From positions 13,979-77,978 of the forward strand of contig CAWJDL010000001.1 in NCBI GenBank assembly GCA_963841555.1: a stretch of DNA of 64,000 nt. The letters run 5' to 3'. The notes below the pieces were generated by a model. That model ran no database searches, had not been told where the DNA came from, and was given only the letters and a program-made list of their open reading frames with translations. Both the position numbers and the translations under genes were made by a program. Below, one piece after another: positions 56,237 to 63,905 of the stretch (positions within the stretch are counted from its first letter, which is position 1; each line of letters starts with the position of its first letter). The DNA comes from an uncultured Actinomycetota bacterium (GTDB lineage Bacteria; Actinomycetota; Actinomycetes; Mycobacteriales; Mycobacteriaceae).

Positions 56237-59200
56237 ATGACCGTAACCTTGACCCGTCGGACGTCCCGGTACTGGTGGGTGCCGGCGGCGGCCGGCTGGA
56301 CGGTCGGCATCATCGCCACGCTGTCTCTGATCGCGAGCGTCTCGCCGGGCATCCGGTGGATCATCAAGGAGCCCCGCGAGTTCGTCAACGACTACATCTT
56401 CAACTTCCCCGACACGAGCTTCGCGTGGGCCTTCGTGTTGGTCCTGCTGGCAGCGGCGCTTGCGGCCCGCAAACGCCTCGCCTGGTGGATCCTCGTGCTC
56501 TACATGGTTGCGGCTGCCGGCTGGAACGTCGTCGACCTGACCACTGGTGACGAGTCGGTCATGGCGGACCTCGGTGAGGTGATCGGGCTCGGCTTCCACA
56601 TCGCGGCGATCTTGTTCCTGGTGCTGGCCCGCAAGGAGTTCTGGGCGAAGGTGCGCCGAGGTGCGCTGTTCAAGGCCGCCGCCGCGCTGGTGGTCAGCAT
56701 GGCGGTCAGCACGCTCATCGGGTGGGCACTGCTGGAGTTCTTCCCGGGCTCGCTGGCCCGCAGTGATCGATTCCTCTACGCGTTGAACAGGGTGAGCGCG
56801 TTCGCGGGCGCCGCCTCTGATTCGTTCACCGGGCATCCGCACGTGTTCGTCAACGCTCTGCTCGGCCTTTTCGGCGCACTCGCCTTGATGGTCGCGGCGA
56901 TCGTACTGTTCCGATCGCAGCGCGCCGAGAACGCTCTCACCGGTGAGGACGAGTCGGCGATCCGCGGCCTGCTGGAGCTGTTCGGCAAGAACGACTCATT
57001 GGGATACTTCGCCACCCGCCGCGACAAGGCGGTCGTGTTCGCGCCCAGCGGCCGTGCCGCCATCACATACCGCGTCGAGGTCGGCGTCTGCCTGGCCAGC
57101 GGCGACCCGGTCGGCGACCCGAGGGCCTGGCCGCAGGCCATCGAGGCGTGGCTGGGGCTGTGCCAGACCTACGGCTGGGCACCGGGAGTGATGGGCGCCA
57201 GTTCGACCGCGGCCCAGGCGTTCCGCGAAGCCGGTCTCAACGCCCTGCAACTCGGCGACGAGGCCATCCTGTATCCGGACAATTTCCGGCTGTCCGGCCC
57301 CGACATGCGCGCCATACGCCAAGCCGTGACCCGGGCGCGGCGGGCGGGCGCCACCGTACGGATCCGCCGTCACCGTGACCTCAGCATCGAGGAGATGGCC
57401 CAAGTGACCGCGCGGGCCGACGCCTGGCGCGACACCGATAGCGAACGCGGCTTCTCGATGGCGCTCGGCCGGCTTGGCGACCCCGCCGACGGCGACTGCC
57501 TCCTGGTGGAGGCGCTGCAGAACGACAACGTCGTGGCGATGCTGTCACTCGTGCCGTGGGGCAACAACGGCGCGTCGCTGGACCTGATGCGCCGATCCCC
57601 GCAATCTCCGAACGGCACAATCGAATTGATGGTCAGCGAGCTGTGCATGCAGTCCGAGAGCATTGGGGTGACCCGGATCTCGCTGAACTTCGCGATGTTC
57701 CGCTCGGCATTCGAGCAGGGCGCACAACTGGGCGCGGGACCGGTCGCGCGGCTGTGGCGTGGCCTGCTGGTGTTCTTCTGCCGCTGGTGGCAGCTCGAGA
57801 CGCTGTACCGCTCGAACATGAAGTACCAGCCCGAGTGGGTTCCGCGCTACGCCTGCTACGAGGACGCTCGGCTGGTGCCGCGGGTCGGCGTCGCCTCCGT
57901 CATCGCCGAAGGCTTTCTTGTGCTGCCGTTCTCGCGACGACAGGATCAGCCGCACACCGGCCAACACATTGCCGCGCCGGAAAATCTGGTGGCGACGGGG
58001 TTGTTGCACCACGACGGCAGCGCGCCCGATCTCGGCGAGCTGCAGGCGGACCTGCCCGAGGCCGACGAGCAGACACGCTTGCCGGAACAGGTGCGCGTGC
58101 GGATGGCCAAGCTAAAGACGTTGCAGGACAGCGGCGTCGACGCTTATCCGGTCGGCGAGGCGCCCAGCCACACCATCGCGCAGGCGGTCGACGCAGGCGA
58201 CGACGAAGCGGTGACCATATCCGGACGGATATTGCGCATCCGCGACTACGGCGGCGTGCTGTTCGCCCAGCTGCGCGACTGGTCTGGCGAAGTCCAACTG
58301 CTGCTTGACAATTCGGTGCTCGAAAAGGGGACGACCGCGGACTTCACCCACGCCCTCGATCTGGGCGACCTGATCGAGGTGACCGGATCGATGGGTCGCA
58401 GCAAGAAGGGCACCCGGTCGCTGATGGTGCGCGGATGGCGGTTGATCGGCAAGTGCCTGCGCCCGCTGCCCGACAAGTGGAAGGGATTGACCGACCAGGA
58501 GGCGCGGGTGCGTGCCCGATACGTCGACCTGGCGATCAACACCGAGGCCCGCGACCTGATCCGGGCCCGCAGCGGCGTGCTGCACGCGATCCGCGAAACC
58601 CTGGTCGGCAAGGGGTTTTTGGAGGTCGAGACGCCGATCCTGCAGCAGATCCACGGCGGCGCCAACGCCAGGCCGTTCCTGACCCACATCAACGCCTACG
58701 ACCTCGACCTGTACCTGCGCATCGCCCCGGAGCTCTACCTCAAGCGGCTGTGTGTCGGCGGTGTCGAGCGGGTCTTCGAGCTGGGCCGGGCATTCCGCAA
58801 CGAGGGCGTCGACTTCAGCCACAACCCCGAGTTCACACTGCTGGAGGCCTACCAGGCGCACGCCGACTACAACGTGTGGATCGACGGCTGCCGCGAGCTG
58901 ATTCAGAACGCCGCGCAGGCCGCCAACGGCGCGCACGTGTTTCTGCGTCCCCGCGACGACGGCACCACTGGAGCCCGTCGACATCTCCGGTGAGTGGACC
59001 GTGAAGACCGTGCACGGCGCGGTGTCGGAGGCGTTGGGCGAGCAGGTCGGGCCCGACACCGATCTGGCTACGCTGCGCAAGCTGTGCGACGCGGCGGATA
59101 TCCCTTATCTGACCCACTGGGATGCCGGCGCGGTGGTGCTCGAACTCTACGAGCGGCTGGTCGAGGACCGCACCGAGGCGCCCACCTTCTACAAGGACTT

Positions 59201-59534
59201 CCCGACGTCGGTTTCGCCGCTGACCCGGCCGCACCGCAGCATTCCCGGAGTGGCCGAGCGCTGGGACCTGGTGGCGTGGGGCGTCGAGTTGGGCACCGCC
59301 TACAGCGAGCTGACGGATCCGGTTGAGCAGCGCAGGCGGCTGCAGGAGCAGTCGCTGTTGGCCTCCGGCGGCGATCCCGAGGCGATGGAACTCGACGAGG
59401 ACTTTCTGCAGGCCATGGAATACGCAATGCCGCCGACGGGCGGGCTCGGCATGGGCGTCGACCGCGTCGTAATGCTGATCACCGGACGCAGCATCCGCGA
59501 AACCCTGCCGTTCCCATTAGCCAAACCGCGTTAG
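56237..59534 (+). CDS. lysX: Bifunctional lysylphosphatidylglycerol synthase / lysyl-tRNA ligase, apparent +1 frameshift near 58967
   Basis: MprF-like membrane and transferase domains, then LysRS ([16 protein letters not shown]). Motif 3 (GGLGMGVDR) is in a second frame. Removing one A gives 1098 aa. Confidence 0.94.
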
Positions 59535-59691
59535 CAGGAATCGAGGCCTCGGTTTCATTACCCGGCTGGCATGCGGGGAAGCGGAAGCACTGCGGTGACG
59601 ACGCTTCGGCCCCGCCGGATGTGAAACCCCGCTCCCACCGTGCGTACACAAACGGGCGAGGTCGGCGCACGGCTTCTGCCGACGGACGGAA

Positions 59692-59713
59692 TGTCGGTGG
59701 CCAACGCTAGCGT
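59692..59713 (+). promoter_or_regulatory. PafBC/RecA-NDp-type DNA-damage promoter
   Basis: TGTCGG-TGGCCAACGC-TAGCGT matches TGTCGG-N10-TA-N3-T exactly. ATG lies 7 nt downstream. Confidence 0.75.
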
Positions 59714-59720
59714 GCGAAGT

Positions 59721-60911
59721 ATGAAGCAGGTGGCGAAGGTTCGGATACTCCCGACCGGAGCCGAGGCAGCTGCCTTGGACGCCACCATCCGTGCGTGCAA
59801 CAGCGCCGCGTCGTGGCTATCGGCCCAAATGCATGGCGAGCGCGTGTACCGCAAACATGAGGCACAGAAGCGCTTTTACGCTGAGTTGCGACAAAGGTTT
59901 GGCTTGTCGGCGCAACCGGCCATCCGCGTGATTGGCAAGGTCGCCGATGCGTACACCACTTTGCGCGCGAACATCGCCGCTGGCAACTGCGGTGCCCCCG
60001 GATCGCGGCGTCGTGCGAAGACGGTAGCGACGCCCATCCAATTCCGGGACGTTGCGGCCCAACCGTTCGACGCGCGGTGTCTGTCCTGGCAGATCCCTGA
60101 CGTGATCGGCGGACGAGAAGCGACGGTATCGATTTGGTCCGTGCACGGACGGTTGCGCAATGTTCGTGTGCTTGCTGCTCCAGCAGATCTGGCTTTACTG
60201 CGCACCCGTCCGATCGGAGAGACCGACCTAATCTATCGGGACGGCAATTGGTTCCTGTACGCCACCATCGAAGCGCCCGAAGCGCCATTGGCCGAACCGG
60301 CCAACGGATTCTTGGGCGTTGACATGGGCATCGTCAACATCGCCACCACCAGCATCGGTCGGAGAGCTTCCGGTGCCCGATTGAATTCCTACCGCAAGCG
60401 ACAGGCGCGGCTGCGGAAAAGGTTACAGGCCAAGAAAACTAGCTCGGCGCGACGATTGCTGAAGAAGCGAGGCCGCAAAGAGGCCCGCTTCGCCGCCGAC
60501 ATCAACCACCAGATCTCCAAACGCATCGTGGCCGAGGCTGAACGCACCGGATGCGGTATCGCCGTCGAACAACTGACGGGGATCCGTGACCGGGTACGGC
60601 TTCGCAAGCCCCAACGGGCCACGCTGCACACCTGGGCATTTGCCCAACTCGGCTCGTTTCTGGCCTACAAGGCCAAGCAGGGCGGAGTGGCGTTCGTCGA
60701 GGTCGACCCCGCCTACACGTCGCAGATGTGCAGTGCGTGCGGCTGGGTCGACAAACGAAACCGCAAATCTCAAGCGGTGTTCGAGTGTGGTCGGTGTGAC
60801 TTCGTTGGGCACGCCGACCACAATGCAGCGATCAACATCGCATCTCGCGGTGTCGAGCGCTGGGGCGAAATCATGCGCCCGCACGCAGCGCCCACCCTGA
60901 CAGCCAGTTAG
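59721..60911 (+). CDS. tnpB: IS200/IS605-family RNA-guided endonuclease TnpB (no TnpA)
   Basis: RuvC-I GVDMG, RuvC-II IAVEQL, zinc finger CSAC/CGRC, RuvC-III HADHNAAINI. Confidence 0.92.
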   Translation: MKQVAKVRILPTGAEAAALDATIRACNSAASWLSAQMHGERVYRKHEAQKRFYAELRQRFGLSAQPAIRVIGKVADAYTTLRANIAAGNCGAPGSRRRAKTVATPIQFRDVAAQPFDARCLSWQIPDVIGGREATVSIWSVHGRLRNVRVLAAPADLALLRTRPIGETDLIYRDGNWFLYATIEAPEAPLAEPANGFLGVDMGIVNIATTSIGRRASGARLNSYRKRQARLRKRLQAKKTSSARRLLKKRGRKEARFAADINHQISKRIVAEAERTGCGIAVEQLTGIRDRVRLRKPQRATLHTWAFAQLGSFLAYKAKQGGVAFVEVDPAYTSQMCSACGWVDKRNRKSQAVFECGRCDFVGHADHNAAINIASRGVERWGEIMRPHAAPTLTAS

Positions 60912-61023
60912 GGCGGCAGCAGCAAGCCTATAGGCAGCCGGAAGGCTAAGGACGACGCAAGATCCCGACCCTTCACAGGTTCATGACAGGCGGTCCTAAG
61001 GAATCGCGTCCACGATTGTTGCC

Positions 61024-62460
61024 GTGACGTTACTCGAGCCGTTGCGCCACCACCTCTCGCTGATGCACGGTTGGATTCCGATAACGGCGCAAGTCGTCGC
61101 AGGCCTCCTGCTGATCGCCGCGATCGGCTGGCGGAACCGGCGCTGGCGCCTGTTGTGGCTGCCGTGGGCCGCGCTGGTCGGGGTCGCGCTGGCGGTGGCG
61201 GCGTACTGGTACATCGCCTCTGAGGGGATGAGTGACCACACCAATCCCGCCCCGTACTCGTTGTGGATCTGGATCGGAATCTCCGGCGTCGCCGCCGGGG
61301 TGCTGATCGCAGGCTGGCGCGGCGCGCGCTGGTGGCGGCGCGGCGTGTCGACGCTTGCGCTGCCGCTGTGCCTGTTGTGTTCGGCGCTGGCCCTGAATCT
61401 GTGGGTCGGTTACTTCCCCACGGTGCAGACCGCGTGGAGTCAGCTCACCGCAGGACCATTGCCCGACCAAACGGACGCCGTCACGGTGACCGCGATGCAG
61501 AAACAGCATGCGATTCCGGCGAAGGGCACCGTCGTGCCGGTCACCATTCCCAGTGTGGCGTCGGGTTTCAAGCACCGCGGTGAGCTGATCTACCTACCGC
61601 CGGCCTGGTATGCCACCGATCCCCCGCCGCCGCTGCCGACGGTGATGATGATCGGCGGCGAGTTCAACACTCCCGCCGACTGGCTCCGGGCGGGCAACGC
61701 GGTGAAGACGATCGACGACTTCGCGGCGGCGCACGGCGGCAACGCGCCGGTGTTCGTGTTCGTCGACTCGGGCGGCGCGTTCAACAACGACACCGAATGC
61801 GTCAACGGTGTGCGTGGCAACGCTGCCGACCATCTCACCAAAGATGTTGTCCCGTTCATGATTTCGCAATACGGCGTGTCACCGAACCGGGCCAACTGGG
61901 GCGTCGCCGGATGGTCGATGGGCGGCACATGCGCCGTCGACCTGACGGTGATGCATCCCGATATGTTCAGCGCATTTGAGGACATTGCAGGGGACCTGAC
62001 GCCCAACTCGGGAAACAAGGCCCAGACCATTGCGCGCCTGTTCGGCGGGAACGCCGCAGCATATGCGGCCTTCGACCCGACCACGGTAATCACCCACCAC
62101 GGCCCCTACGTAGGGGTAGCGGGCCGGTTCGACATCAACGGCACGACGCCGCCGTCGCCGCAGCGCAACGTGGTGGTCAACGCGGCGGCCAACCCCAACG
62201 ACCAAACCGCGGCGGCGAACTCGCTATGCGCGACGGGCAGCGCCGACGGCATCACATGCGCGGTGGTGTCCCAGCCGGGCAAACACGACTGGCCGTTCGC
62301 GGCCCACGCATTCGCCGCGGCGCTGCCGTGGATGGCGGGCCAGCTCGGCACACCCGGCTTGCGAGCGATTCCGCTGCCGGCACCGCCGCCGCCGGCGCCA
62401 CCGTTGCCACTGCCCGCTCCGCCACAGTCCGCGCCACATCTGCAGGCGGCGTCGAGGTAG
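61024..62460 (+). CDS. Membrane-anchored alpha/beta-hydrolase esterase (Rv1639c-like)
   Basis: N-terminal TM segments, GWSMGG nucleophile, GKHDW, Pro-rich tail. Confidence 0.85.
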   Translation: MTLLEPLRHHLSLMHGWIPITAQVVAGLLLIAAIGWRNRRWRLLWLPWAALVGVALAVAAYWYIASEGMSDHTNPAPYSLWIWIGISGVAAGVLIAGWRGARWWRRGVSTLALPLCLLCSALALNLWVGYFPTVQTAWSQLTAGPLPDQTDAVTVTAMQKQHAIPAKGTVVPVTIPSVASGFKHRGELIYLPPAWYATDPPPPLPTVMMIGGEFNTPADWLRAGNAVKTIDDFAAAHGGNAPVFVFVDSGGAFNNDTECVNGVRGNAADHLTKDVVPFMISQYGVSPNRANWGVAGWSMGGTCAVDLTVMHPDMFSAFEDIAGDLTPNSGNKAQTIARLFGGNAAAYAAFDPTTVITHHGPYVGVAGRFDINGTTPPSPQRNVVVNAAANPNDQTAAANSLCATGSADGITCAVVSQPGKHDWPFAAHAFAAALPWMAGQLGTPGLRAIPLPAPPPPAPPLPLPAPPQSAPHLQAASR

Positions 62461-62462
62461 GC

Positions 62463-63839
62463 CTAGAGCTGGTTGACGGCCAGAGCGTCCTCGACTGGAT
62501 CGTGATAGCCCGTCGGCGCGTATAACCGCCACCCACCAGGAACGCCTTTGAGTTCATGGACATCCCGGTCCTCGAACGTTATTCCGGACCCGTAGACGAG
62601 CTCTTTCACGGTATTCGATACGAGTACCTCTCCCGCGGTCGCTTTCGCTGCGATTCGTGCGGCGATATGGACCGCGATTCCACCGAGGTCTCCGCCGCGC
62701 CGCACGCATTCGCCCGTGTGCAGACCGCTGCGAATGTGAACACCGATCTGCGGCATGCGTTCGACAAGTGTGGTGGCGCACAGGACGGCTCGCGTCGGGC
62801 AATCGAAGCTCGCCACCAGCCCATCACCCGTGTCTTTGACGAATCGGCCTCGGAACAAAGCGATTTCGGCACGCGCGATCTCGTGGTGGCGGTCAAGCAG
62901 CTCCCGCCAGCGCTGGTCGCCGAGCTTGGCGGCGTGCCTGGTGGAATCGACGATGTCGGTGAACATCACAGTGGCCAAGACTCGATCCGGTGGATGCTCG
63001 TGCCGCTGCCCGGTCAGGAACTCCTCCATCTCACCGGTGATCGAGGTGACGTCACCGACCCACGGCAGATGGTCGATGCCGTCTAACTCGACGAATCGCG
63101 CGCCTGAGATTCGTGCAGCGAGATCCCGCCCCAGCGCTATCGGGGCCGTTTCTCCTCTGCGATGAAGCACCAGGGTCGGAACCCGGACACTGCCAAGGAT
63201 GTCCTTCATATCTAGTTGCCGCAGTACCGCCTGCCAGGTGATCAGGGCCATCTTCGGGCTCATGGCAGCTCGTTCGAGTGCGCCCATCGCCCGTCTGGCT
63301 TCGGCGTCGTCACGCAGGCTGGGCGCTGCCCAATCGATCGTCTGCCCCTCGCCCCAGTGGTCAACTGTCGACCGAATTCTCGCGATGAGGTCGAGCGAAC
63401 GTTGCATAGTCGCCTCATCGAAGAGATCAGGCGCCCCACCGGCGCCCGTCCCATAGAGGATCAGTGCGCGAACACGCTCGGGATAGGTGGCGGCGAACAC
63501 AACGCTAATCGGGCCGCCCTCTGAGAACCCGAACAGCGCCGCACGTTCACAGCCGGCGGCATCCATCACCGCGTGCAAGTCGTCGACGCGGTTCTCGATT
63601 GTGGGCACCCCATCAACCGGATCAGATAGCCCGGTCCCCCTCTTGTCGTACAGGATTACGCGCGCAAACGACGCAAGCTCGCCGACAAGGGTGCGCCATC
63701 GAACGTCGCCCCACTGCATGTCGATGTGAGAGAACCAGCCAGGAACGACAACCAGATCAATTAGGCCGTCGCCCACGATCTGGTAGGCGACGTTGCCGTC
63801 CGGCCCCTTCGCGTAATGCGTCTGGGGCGGCTCGACCAT
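62463..63839 (-). CDS. Alpha/beta-hydrolase plus class III cyclase fusion (LipJ/Rv1900c-like)
   Basis: GFSEGG, then FTDIVDST, KDTGDG, GLHTGE and AVHIAARI motifs. Confidence 0.9.
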   Translation of the reverse strand: MVEPPQTHYAKGPDGNVAYQIVGDGLIDLVVVPGWFSHIDMQWGDVRWRTLVGELASFARVILYDKRGTGLSDPVDGVPTIENRVDDLHAVMDAAGCERAALFGFSEGGPISVVFAATYPERVRALILYGTGAGGAPDLFDEATMQRSLDLIARIRSTVDHWGEGQTIDWAAPSLRDDAEARRAMGALERAAMSPKMALITWQAVLRQLDMKDILGSVRVPTLVLHRRGETAPIALGRDLAARISGARFVELDGIDHLPWVGDVTSITGEMEEFLTGQRHEHPPDRVLATVMFTDIVDSTRHAAKLGDQRWRELLDRHHEIARAEIALFRGRFVKDTGDGLVASFDCPTRAVLCATTLVERMPQIGVHIRSGLHTGECVRRGGDLGGIAVHIAARIAAKATAGEVLVSNTVKELVYGSGITFEDRDVHELKGVPGGWRLYAPTGYHDPVEDALAVNQL

Positions 63840-63905
63840 AGACGCAAGTGTCCCACGGACGAAACCGGCCACTACGCTTCGAATAAAGCCGAGTAGCGTG
63901 AGGCC

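Follow-up and report, generated by a model that had tools for sequence, protein, structure and literature searches.

The tnpB gene of an IS605-family element, located at positions 59721–60911 of the 64-kb window studied here, is preceded by what is, judging by its agreement with the published consensus, an exact PafBC-type promoter arranged to give a leaderless mRNA. The window is the whole stretch of DNA that was analyzed (C1:13979–77978) and belongs to a soil mycobacterium whose genome comprises 7.83 Mb in 26 contigs. The tnpB gene is intact, and both PafBC dependence and induction by DNA damage are what we infer for it from these sequence features. We consider it likely that positions 59692–59713 are a PafBC-dependent promoter that forms an integral and selected part of the mobile element rather than a piece of host DNA, and that works through the mechanism proposed below. 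The features on which this reading rests are the following:

59692..59699, + strand: PafBC '-26 element' TGTCGGTG, assigned by its match to the published consensus and its conservation among homologous loci
59708..59713, + strand: -10 hexamer TAGCGT (TAnnnT), conserved at the same distance from the 8-mer in the homologous loci
59720..59721, + strand: predicted transcription start of a leaderless mRNA, or of one with a leader of 1 nucleotide (nt), placed by the conserved distance from the -10 hexamer to the start codon
59721..60911, + strand: tnpB, a predicted RNA-guided endonuclease of 396 amino acids (aa), identified by Pfam, NCBIfam and alignment with Cas12f, with RuvC triad and zinc ribbon intact

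The order read along the + strand is TGTCGG (59692–59697), 10 nt (TGGCCAACGC), TAGCGT (59708–59713), 7 nt (GCGAAGT), and then ATG AAG from position 59721, which is precisely the layout that a first-pass annotation of this DNA had described. The same annotation had recognized the RecA-NDp (PafBC) motif, and this match was not only exact but could be extended, as the site also fits the longer form TGTCGGTG-N8-TAnnnT and thus the full consensus. In vivo, PafBC promoters follow the consensus tGTCgg(N10)tA(N3)T, which combines a '-26 element' with a canonical -10 and has no -35, and are recognized through 'sigma adaptation' of the RNA polymerase-SigA holoenzyme (PMC8635444). The longer form occurs once in the 64-kb window against 0.04 occurrences expected from shuffled sequence, and the looser form TGTCRG-N10-TAN3T likewise once against 0.30 expected. 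Our scan found no sigma-70 -35/-10 pair on the + strand near the promoter, and no terminator was seen near it. A LexA box with three or fewer mismatches was absent from 59165–60852, and co-regulation of tnpB by LexA was rejected for this reason.

The gap of only 7 nt between the -10 hexamer and the ATG at 59721 leaves no room for a Shine-Dalgarno sequence, in agreement with the first-pass annotation, which had reported none. A longer in-frame open reading frame (ORF) beginning with GTG at 59640 is present, but it was rejected as the start of tnpB; the homologues have nothing in common upstream of 59721, and we therefore take the ATG at 59721 to be the start codon. The encoded protein matches PF07282 and PF01385 in Pfam (scores of 79.2 and 37.3, respectively) and the NCBIfam model NF040570, 'RNA-guided endonuclease TnpB family', with 185.5 bits against a cut-off of 100. 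The RuvC D-E-D motifs (GVDMG at residue 199, AVEQL at 281, and HADHNAA at 364) and the CxxC...CxxC zinc ribbon (CSACG at 337 and CGRC at 356) are intact and align to those of Cas12f in structure 9nzq, and the closest solved structures are Cas12f and TnpB chains. Compared with 12 homologues, the ratio of nonsynonymous to synonymous divergence (dN/dS) of tnpB is 0.14–0.19 at a synonymous divergence (dS) of 0.8–1.1. Private substitutions at otherwise invariant sites are no more numerous in the window TnpB than in the other copies.

Comparison among homologous copies provides the main evidence that the promoter belongs to the element. The genome contains three paralogues with a protein identity of 76–77%, and their nucleotide homology starts exactly at TGTCGGTG and stops 76–84 nt after the stop codon. 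We assembled 16 distinct, diverged loci (73–85% identical) from this genome and from relatives in other Mycobacterium genomes and metagenome-assembled genomes. Fifteen of these read TGTC[AG]G[TA]G at the -26 position, while in all 16 a TAnnnT hexamer lies exactly 8 nt past the 8-mer and the start codon follows 6–7 nt later. Mean pairwise identity among the 16 loci is 0.96 at the 11 motif positions, compared with 0.49 in the spacers and 0.29 over the 30 nt upstream. At a dS of about 0.9, this difference between motif and spacers points to purifying selection on the motif itself. The exceptions fit the same explanation because damage to the motif or its spacing accompanies damage to the gene: at L013 the motif is changed to TGTGGG and the ORF is disrupted, and the distant copies L049 and L050 have N11 and N9 spacing together with in-frame TGA stops. 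The first-pass annotation had named conservation of motif and spacing in homologues as a check, and both were kept at 15 of 16 loci; homologues from Kutzneria keep the -10 hexamer without the GTC core.

Members of the same subfamily were also seen outside Mycobacterium (L010, L011, and L015, from Kutzneria and Streptomyces), where TAnnnT is kept 7 nt from a GTG start. The Streptomyces homologue reads GGTCAA at the -26 position. This pattern suggests host-specific turnover of the upstream element outside Mycobacterium.

We also compared the genomic neighborhood of the window copy with that of related genomes lacking the element. This comparison delimits the following features:

59554..59558, + strand: TTCAT, probable target or transposon-associated motif (TAM) pentanucleotide flanking the left insertion junction
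59559..59691, + strand: left part of the inserted element, unique sequence without tnpA that relatives lack here and that may be a diverged left end
60912..60987, + strand: right element end, terminating in TTCATGAC, where 13 copies align to (C/T)NATGAC and then diverge

The element lies between lysX and an esterase-like gene. These two genes are 33–130 nt apart in five relatives, and the element is missing at the site in 80 further relatives, including one whose LysX C-terminus is 99% identical. By comparison with these 85 related genomes, the block is an insertion. Joining the flanks at 59558 and 60988 recreates the relatives' empty site at (C/T)TCA(C/T)|AG, with no target duplication seen, and the left ends of the complete copies L005, L013, and L052 start after TTCAC. 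From the restored empty site and the starts of the complete copies we place the element at about 59559–60987 (1,429 bp), on the 3' side of a TTCAC-like target that was not duplicated, with an uncertainty in the left junction from 59544 to 59559. The subfamily is present in six of 201 genomes of the genus, a patchy distribution that fits a mobile element and not a host gene.

Complete relatives clarify where the promoter sits within the ancestral unit. Directly upstream of the motif, five loci (L003, L005, L013, L048, and L052) carry a divergent Y1 (HUH) tnpA, often frameshifted, and the paralogue on C18 has kept a tnpA remnant. The ancestral unit thus resembled IS605, its tnpA and tnpB being transcribed away from each other. 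The motif of complete copies lies inside this unit, between the divergent tnpA and tnpB, and we rejected the possibility that it is a transposon end. By its position in these copies, the putative promoter is integral to the IS605-family element and was not captured from the host at the window locus. The first-pass annotation had described tnpB as wired to the promoter of the host regulon at this locus; that picture has to be revised, because the homology of the paralogues starts at the motif, the block is an insertion, and the promoter would travel with the element.

The tnpA side of two complete copies also shows promoter-like sequences. At L005:1250–1520 (minus strand), the divergent tnpA has its own mirror-image leaderless promoter, TGTCGG-N10-TACCCT-N7-GTG, facing away from tnpB. 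On the tnpA side of L003 the spacing is wrong, with just 5 nt between TGTCGG and TAGCCT.

The motif recurs in the host genome, in front of both DNA repair genes and mobile elements. Its strict form has 25 occurrences; among the genes that it precedes are uvrA, uvrB, dnaB, a probable recA region, a SWIM/SNF2 helicase gene, DUF222-type genes, and many IS200/IS605 genes. Two host genes, uvrB and the SWIM/SNF2 helicase gene, share the geometry of tnpB, with gaps of 7 nt and 6 nt, respectively. Among loci encoding a TNB domain, 11 of 23 have TGTC[AG]G-N10-TAN3T upstream on the coding strand, compared with 0.14 expected (Poisson P ~1e-17), and about 18% of all motif sites of the genome belong to TnpB elements. 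The architectures number at least three: the window subfamily has the promoter on tnpB itself; in four tandem Y1-tnpA-tnpB elements it stands in front of a leaderless tnpA; and in two 413-aa HTH-TnpB genes the motif lies 86–116 nt upstream. In other genomes of the genus, the motif was found at six or more of 29 sampled TNB loci of further subfamilies, mostly 6 nt from the start codon. The independent TnpB subfamilies with the motif are about 30% identical in protein sequence and differ in architecture. Many unrelated tnpB elements of the genus thus carry the motif, and their expression appears to be timed to DNA damage.

A broader reading is that several unrelated IS200/IS605-family lineages of mycobacteria independently acquired PafBC-type, mostly leaderless promoters, so that TnpB and TnpA are switched on by the single-stranded DNA sensor of recombination repair. 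We put this forward tentatively and would give it somewhat less than an even chance. If true, TnpB elements would constitute a sizeable selfish arm of the mycobacterial DNA-damage regulon, and damage would control their cycle of homing or retention at the level of transcription as well, beyond the supply of substrate seen in ISDra2.

This genome is rich in TnpB-type genes in general, as its 23 TNB-domain loci compare with 0–16 in 60 other genomes of the genus. The 12 loci without a PafBC motif fall into size classes of 484–585 aa and 671–741 aa, plus one 213-aa fragment. Genes of the DUF222/13E12-like type at C5:269404(+), C13:224304(-), and C23:199062(-) start 7 nt past a PafBC motif and have a LexA-type box inside the motif spacer (TGTCGGTG-GTTCGAAC-TAGTGT-TCGA). 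This arrangement looks like a fused, dual-control leaderless promoter.

The candidate regulator is encoded in the same genome. Two tandem WYL-domain genes at C7:352649–354624, followed by tatC, are consistent with pafB-pafC, an arrangement known from mycobacteria. Single-stranded DNA activates PafBC by binding to its WYL domains (PMC11804915). The proposed mechanism begins with a step established in M. smegmatis, in which DNA damage generates single-stranded DNA and the WYL-domain heterodimer PafBC is activated. In the window element, PafBC would then adapt the RNA polymerase-SigA holoenzyme to the promoter at 59692–59713, and transcription from A59721, or from 1 nt before it, would produce a leaderless tnpB mRNA. 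The omega-RNA scaffold would come from the 3' third of this mRNA together with the 76-nt right end, and the guide from the flank that starts at 60988. The resulting complex would cut an empty site consisting of TTCAC plus the guide sequence, and recombination, which the same regulon induces, would restore the element. The likely benefit is one of timing: the production of TnpB, and also of TnpA where the copy is complete, would coincide with the presence of the single-stranded DNA substrate for peel-and-paste transposition. This timing would also match the induction, by the same regulator, of the recombination machinery that copies the element back into an empty site cut by TnpB.

The inferred RNA at the right end of the element comprises two parts:

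60513..60987, + strand: putative omega-RNA scaffold, which extends over the 3' third of tnpB as well as the right end and has its strongest signal at 60810–60987
60988..61007, + strand: host flank and would-be omega-RNA guide AGGCGGTCCTAAGGAATCGC, placed by its position directly 3' of the right end and aligning with the relatives' empty site

Identity at synonymous codons is about 0.5 over the first two-thirds of tnpB but climbs to 0.66–0.86 in the final 130 codons, and from the end of the gene past the stop codon to the right end the sequence hardly varies. Such high synonymous conservation at the 3' end of the gene would be accounted for by an overlapping omega-RNA scaffold. With RNAalifold, 13 copies gave a covariation term of about 0 at a column identity of 87%, a result to be expected of a region too conserved for covariation to test structure. 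Rfam gave no match in 59400–61200 at E <= 1. In the relatives, the right end has a subterminal hairpin, CCCGTCCC-TTCA-GGGACGGG, followed by the terminal (C/T)NATGAC, beyond which the flanks diverge. The omega-RNA would be expected to reach just beyond 60987 and to include a guide of about 16–20 nt, and the predicted target of the window TnpB would be a TTCAC-type TAM followed by AGGCGGTCCTAAGG....

In all 13 copies, an invariant GTCATG (60829–60834, within the 3' coding part of tnpB) is complementary to an invariant CATGAC at the tip of the right end (60982–60987); these correspond to columns 109–114 and 233–237 of alignment A1. The two could form a long-range pairing in the omega-RNA or in a single-stranded DNA end.

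Several observations weigh against our interpretation of the window copy as a PafBC-driven mobile element. This copy has no tnpA, and an intact tnpA of the same subfamily was not found elsewhere in the genome. The right-end hairpin of the relatives cannot form in it (the sequence reads CCCGACCCTTC-ACAGG). The 133 nt from the left junction to the promoter match nothing: the 133–150 nt upstream of the motif, locally aligned with the left ends of four complete copies, scored no higher than shuffles did (p 0.3–0.6), no repeat of the region left of the motif was found elsewhere in the genome, the region folds no better than shuffled sequence, and a left-end hairpin homologous to that of complete copies was not found in the window copy. 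With no tnpA and an atypical right end, the pay-off of damage-timed TnpB at this locus is uncertain. The 7-nt gap combined with the usual -7 rule would place the +1 at T59720, giving a leader of 1 nt. Finally, some members of the subfamily do without the -26 element: the Kutzneria homologues (70–73% identical) have a leaderless geometry and the -10 hexamer but read TGACAG or TGATAC, which lack the GTC core.

Some of the same features could mean that the host has domesticated the gene, a possibility that the first-pass annotation had raised, with TnpB co-opted as a damage-response factor and the PafBC promoter recruited by the host. The ORF is intact despite the missing tnpA, the atypical right-end hairpin, and the lack of a recognizable left end; it has as few private substitutions as other copies and a dN/dS of about 0.17, and the genome contains three diverged, intact paralogues. 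However, a subfamily found in just six of 201 genomes, at a site that is empty in 85 relatives and thus without conserved synteny, is not what domestication would lead one to expect. Copies still carrying tnpA have the promoter equally, and the RuvC triad is intact, unlike that of the known domesticated TnpB derivatives, which are nuclease-dead. We therefore regard domestication as unlikely. We give similarly little credence to a promoter independent of PafBC, in which TAnnnT alone would drive constitutive leaderless transcription and TGTCGGTG would serve a transposon protein or some other regulator. The Kutzneria homologues, which retain the -10 hexamer and not the GTC, would suit such a promoter, and a passage of PMC8635444 citing Cortes et al. 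(2013) notes that the mycobacterial -10 hexamer alone is often enough and that many mRNAs are leaderless. Against it, the same 8-mer at N8 precedes uvrA, uvrB, dnaB, and the probable recA in this very genome, and unrelated tnpA and tnpB genes with differing surroundings carry the bipartite motif too, which fits a host factor and not an element-specific protein. In addition, M. tuberculosis IS607 operons with the motif lose induction on pafBC knock-down.

That the motif has no function and was kept by shared ancestry or chance only is very improbable. All 16 loci are homologous and some conservation is expected, yet at a dS of about 0.9 the spacers are 49% and the upstream sequence 29% identical, compared with 96% for the 11 positions of the motif. 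By chance, 0.04 occurrences would be expected in the window, and the motif is shared by independent TnpB subfamilies (~30% identical) with different architectures. A PafBC-dependent promoter carried by the element thus remains our preferred explanation.

Promoters of the PafBC regulon on mobile-element genes of mycobacteria are of a known kind, while the general association of tnpB with PafBC is unreported. In the indexed literature, no paper mentions both TnpB and PafBC, and a search for three M. tuberculosis tnpB locus tags together with 'DNA damage' did not find them in one paper. The nearest experimental support for PafBC dependence and damage induction comes from a set of IS607-type resolvase-transposase operons in M. 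tuberculosis, whose partner 'transposases' we take to be TnpB. Table S7 of PMC8151990 lists these operons as 'PafBC_candidate': Rv0605/06, Rv0921/22, Rv2791c/92c (with Rv2792c flagged), Rv2885c/86c, Rv2978c/79c, and Rv3827c/28c. According to the same table, they are induced by mitomycin C in the wild type and in a recA deletion, induction is lost or reduced on pafBC knock-down, and every operon has a motif at or inside it; where the table gives a distance, this motif is 8 nt upstream of the start codon. For Rv0605/06, the log2 fold changes with mitomycin C are 2.2 in the wild type, 3.5 in the recA deletion, and -2.5 and -2.1 on pafBC knock-down (PMC8151990). Rv0921 is the tnpA of IS1535, an IS607-family element (PMC6188088). 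Like the window element, these elements are mobile, encode TnpB, and carry a TGTC(G/A)GTG-type motif. They differ in that a serine-recombinase tnpA comes first, with the promoter, and tnpB is co-transcribed, whereas the window element is of the IS605 type with the promoter directly on a leaderless tnpB; its complete relatives have a divergent Y1 tnpA with its own promoter, and the window copy has none. The M. tuberculosis table does not treat the IS607 genes as TnpB nucleases (PMC8151990).

Other known systems share parts of this arrangement. ISDra2 of Deinococcus radiodurans belongs to the same IS family (IS200/IS605, with tnpA and tnpB) and encodes a TnpB of the same kind. DNA damage strongly stimulates transposition of ISDra2, with single-stranded DNA as the key intermediate, but the stimulation acts through the supply of this DNA, as a tnpA-lacZ reporter was not induced after irradiation (PMC2806898). 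The damage response of ISDra2 is thus one of substrate supply, whereas the coupling of the window element appears to be transcriptional, through a regulator with single-stranded DNA as its signal. Canonical PafBC promoters (recA P1, uvrA, uvrB, dnaB, and adnAB) have the same -26 element, N10 spacing, and -10 hexamer and are often leaderless, but they are fixed on host chromosome genes, while the window promoter would move with its transposon. The REP13E12/DUF222-HNH genes of mycobacteria are likewise selfish or repeat nuclease-like genes under damage-response promoters, and the 13E12 genes of M. tuberculosis are PafBC candidates (PMC8151990). In contrast to the window element, whose promoter lacks a LexA box, the REP13E12/DUF222-HNH genes encode proteins of another family that use no RNA guide, and they are controlled by both LexA and PafBC.

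The regulation of TnpB nucleases in native hosts and the persistence of solo tnpB genes under purifying selection are largely unexplained. The element described here offers a hypothesis defined at the level of sequence, namely that expression of tnpB would be gated by the single-stranded DNA sensor PafBC. The signal for PafBC is the same single-stranded DNA that supplies the transposition substrate, and PafBC induces the recombination repair needed for TnpB homing. The 'transposases' in published M. tuberculosis damage-response tables would gain a specific identity as RNA-guided nucleases. A sizeable share of the predicted PafBC sites in some mycobacteria would belong to mobile elements, which matters for the inference of regulons from motifs.

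Three further observations concern genes other than the element. In the window, lysX (56237–59534), which encodes a lysyl-phosphatidylglycerol synthase fused to a lysyl-tRNA synthetase, is split into ORFs of 918 aa and 177 aa by a frame break near 58993–59001. Elsewhere in the genome, uvrB (C1:104802, minus strand) stops early, at 434 aa. The split lysX and the short uvrB could be pseudogenes or could reflect indel errors in the assembly. Further along the window, 62463–63872 (minus strand) encodes a 469-aa protein with an alpha/beta-hydrolase domain and, at its C-terminus, an adenylate/guanylate cyclase domain.

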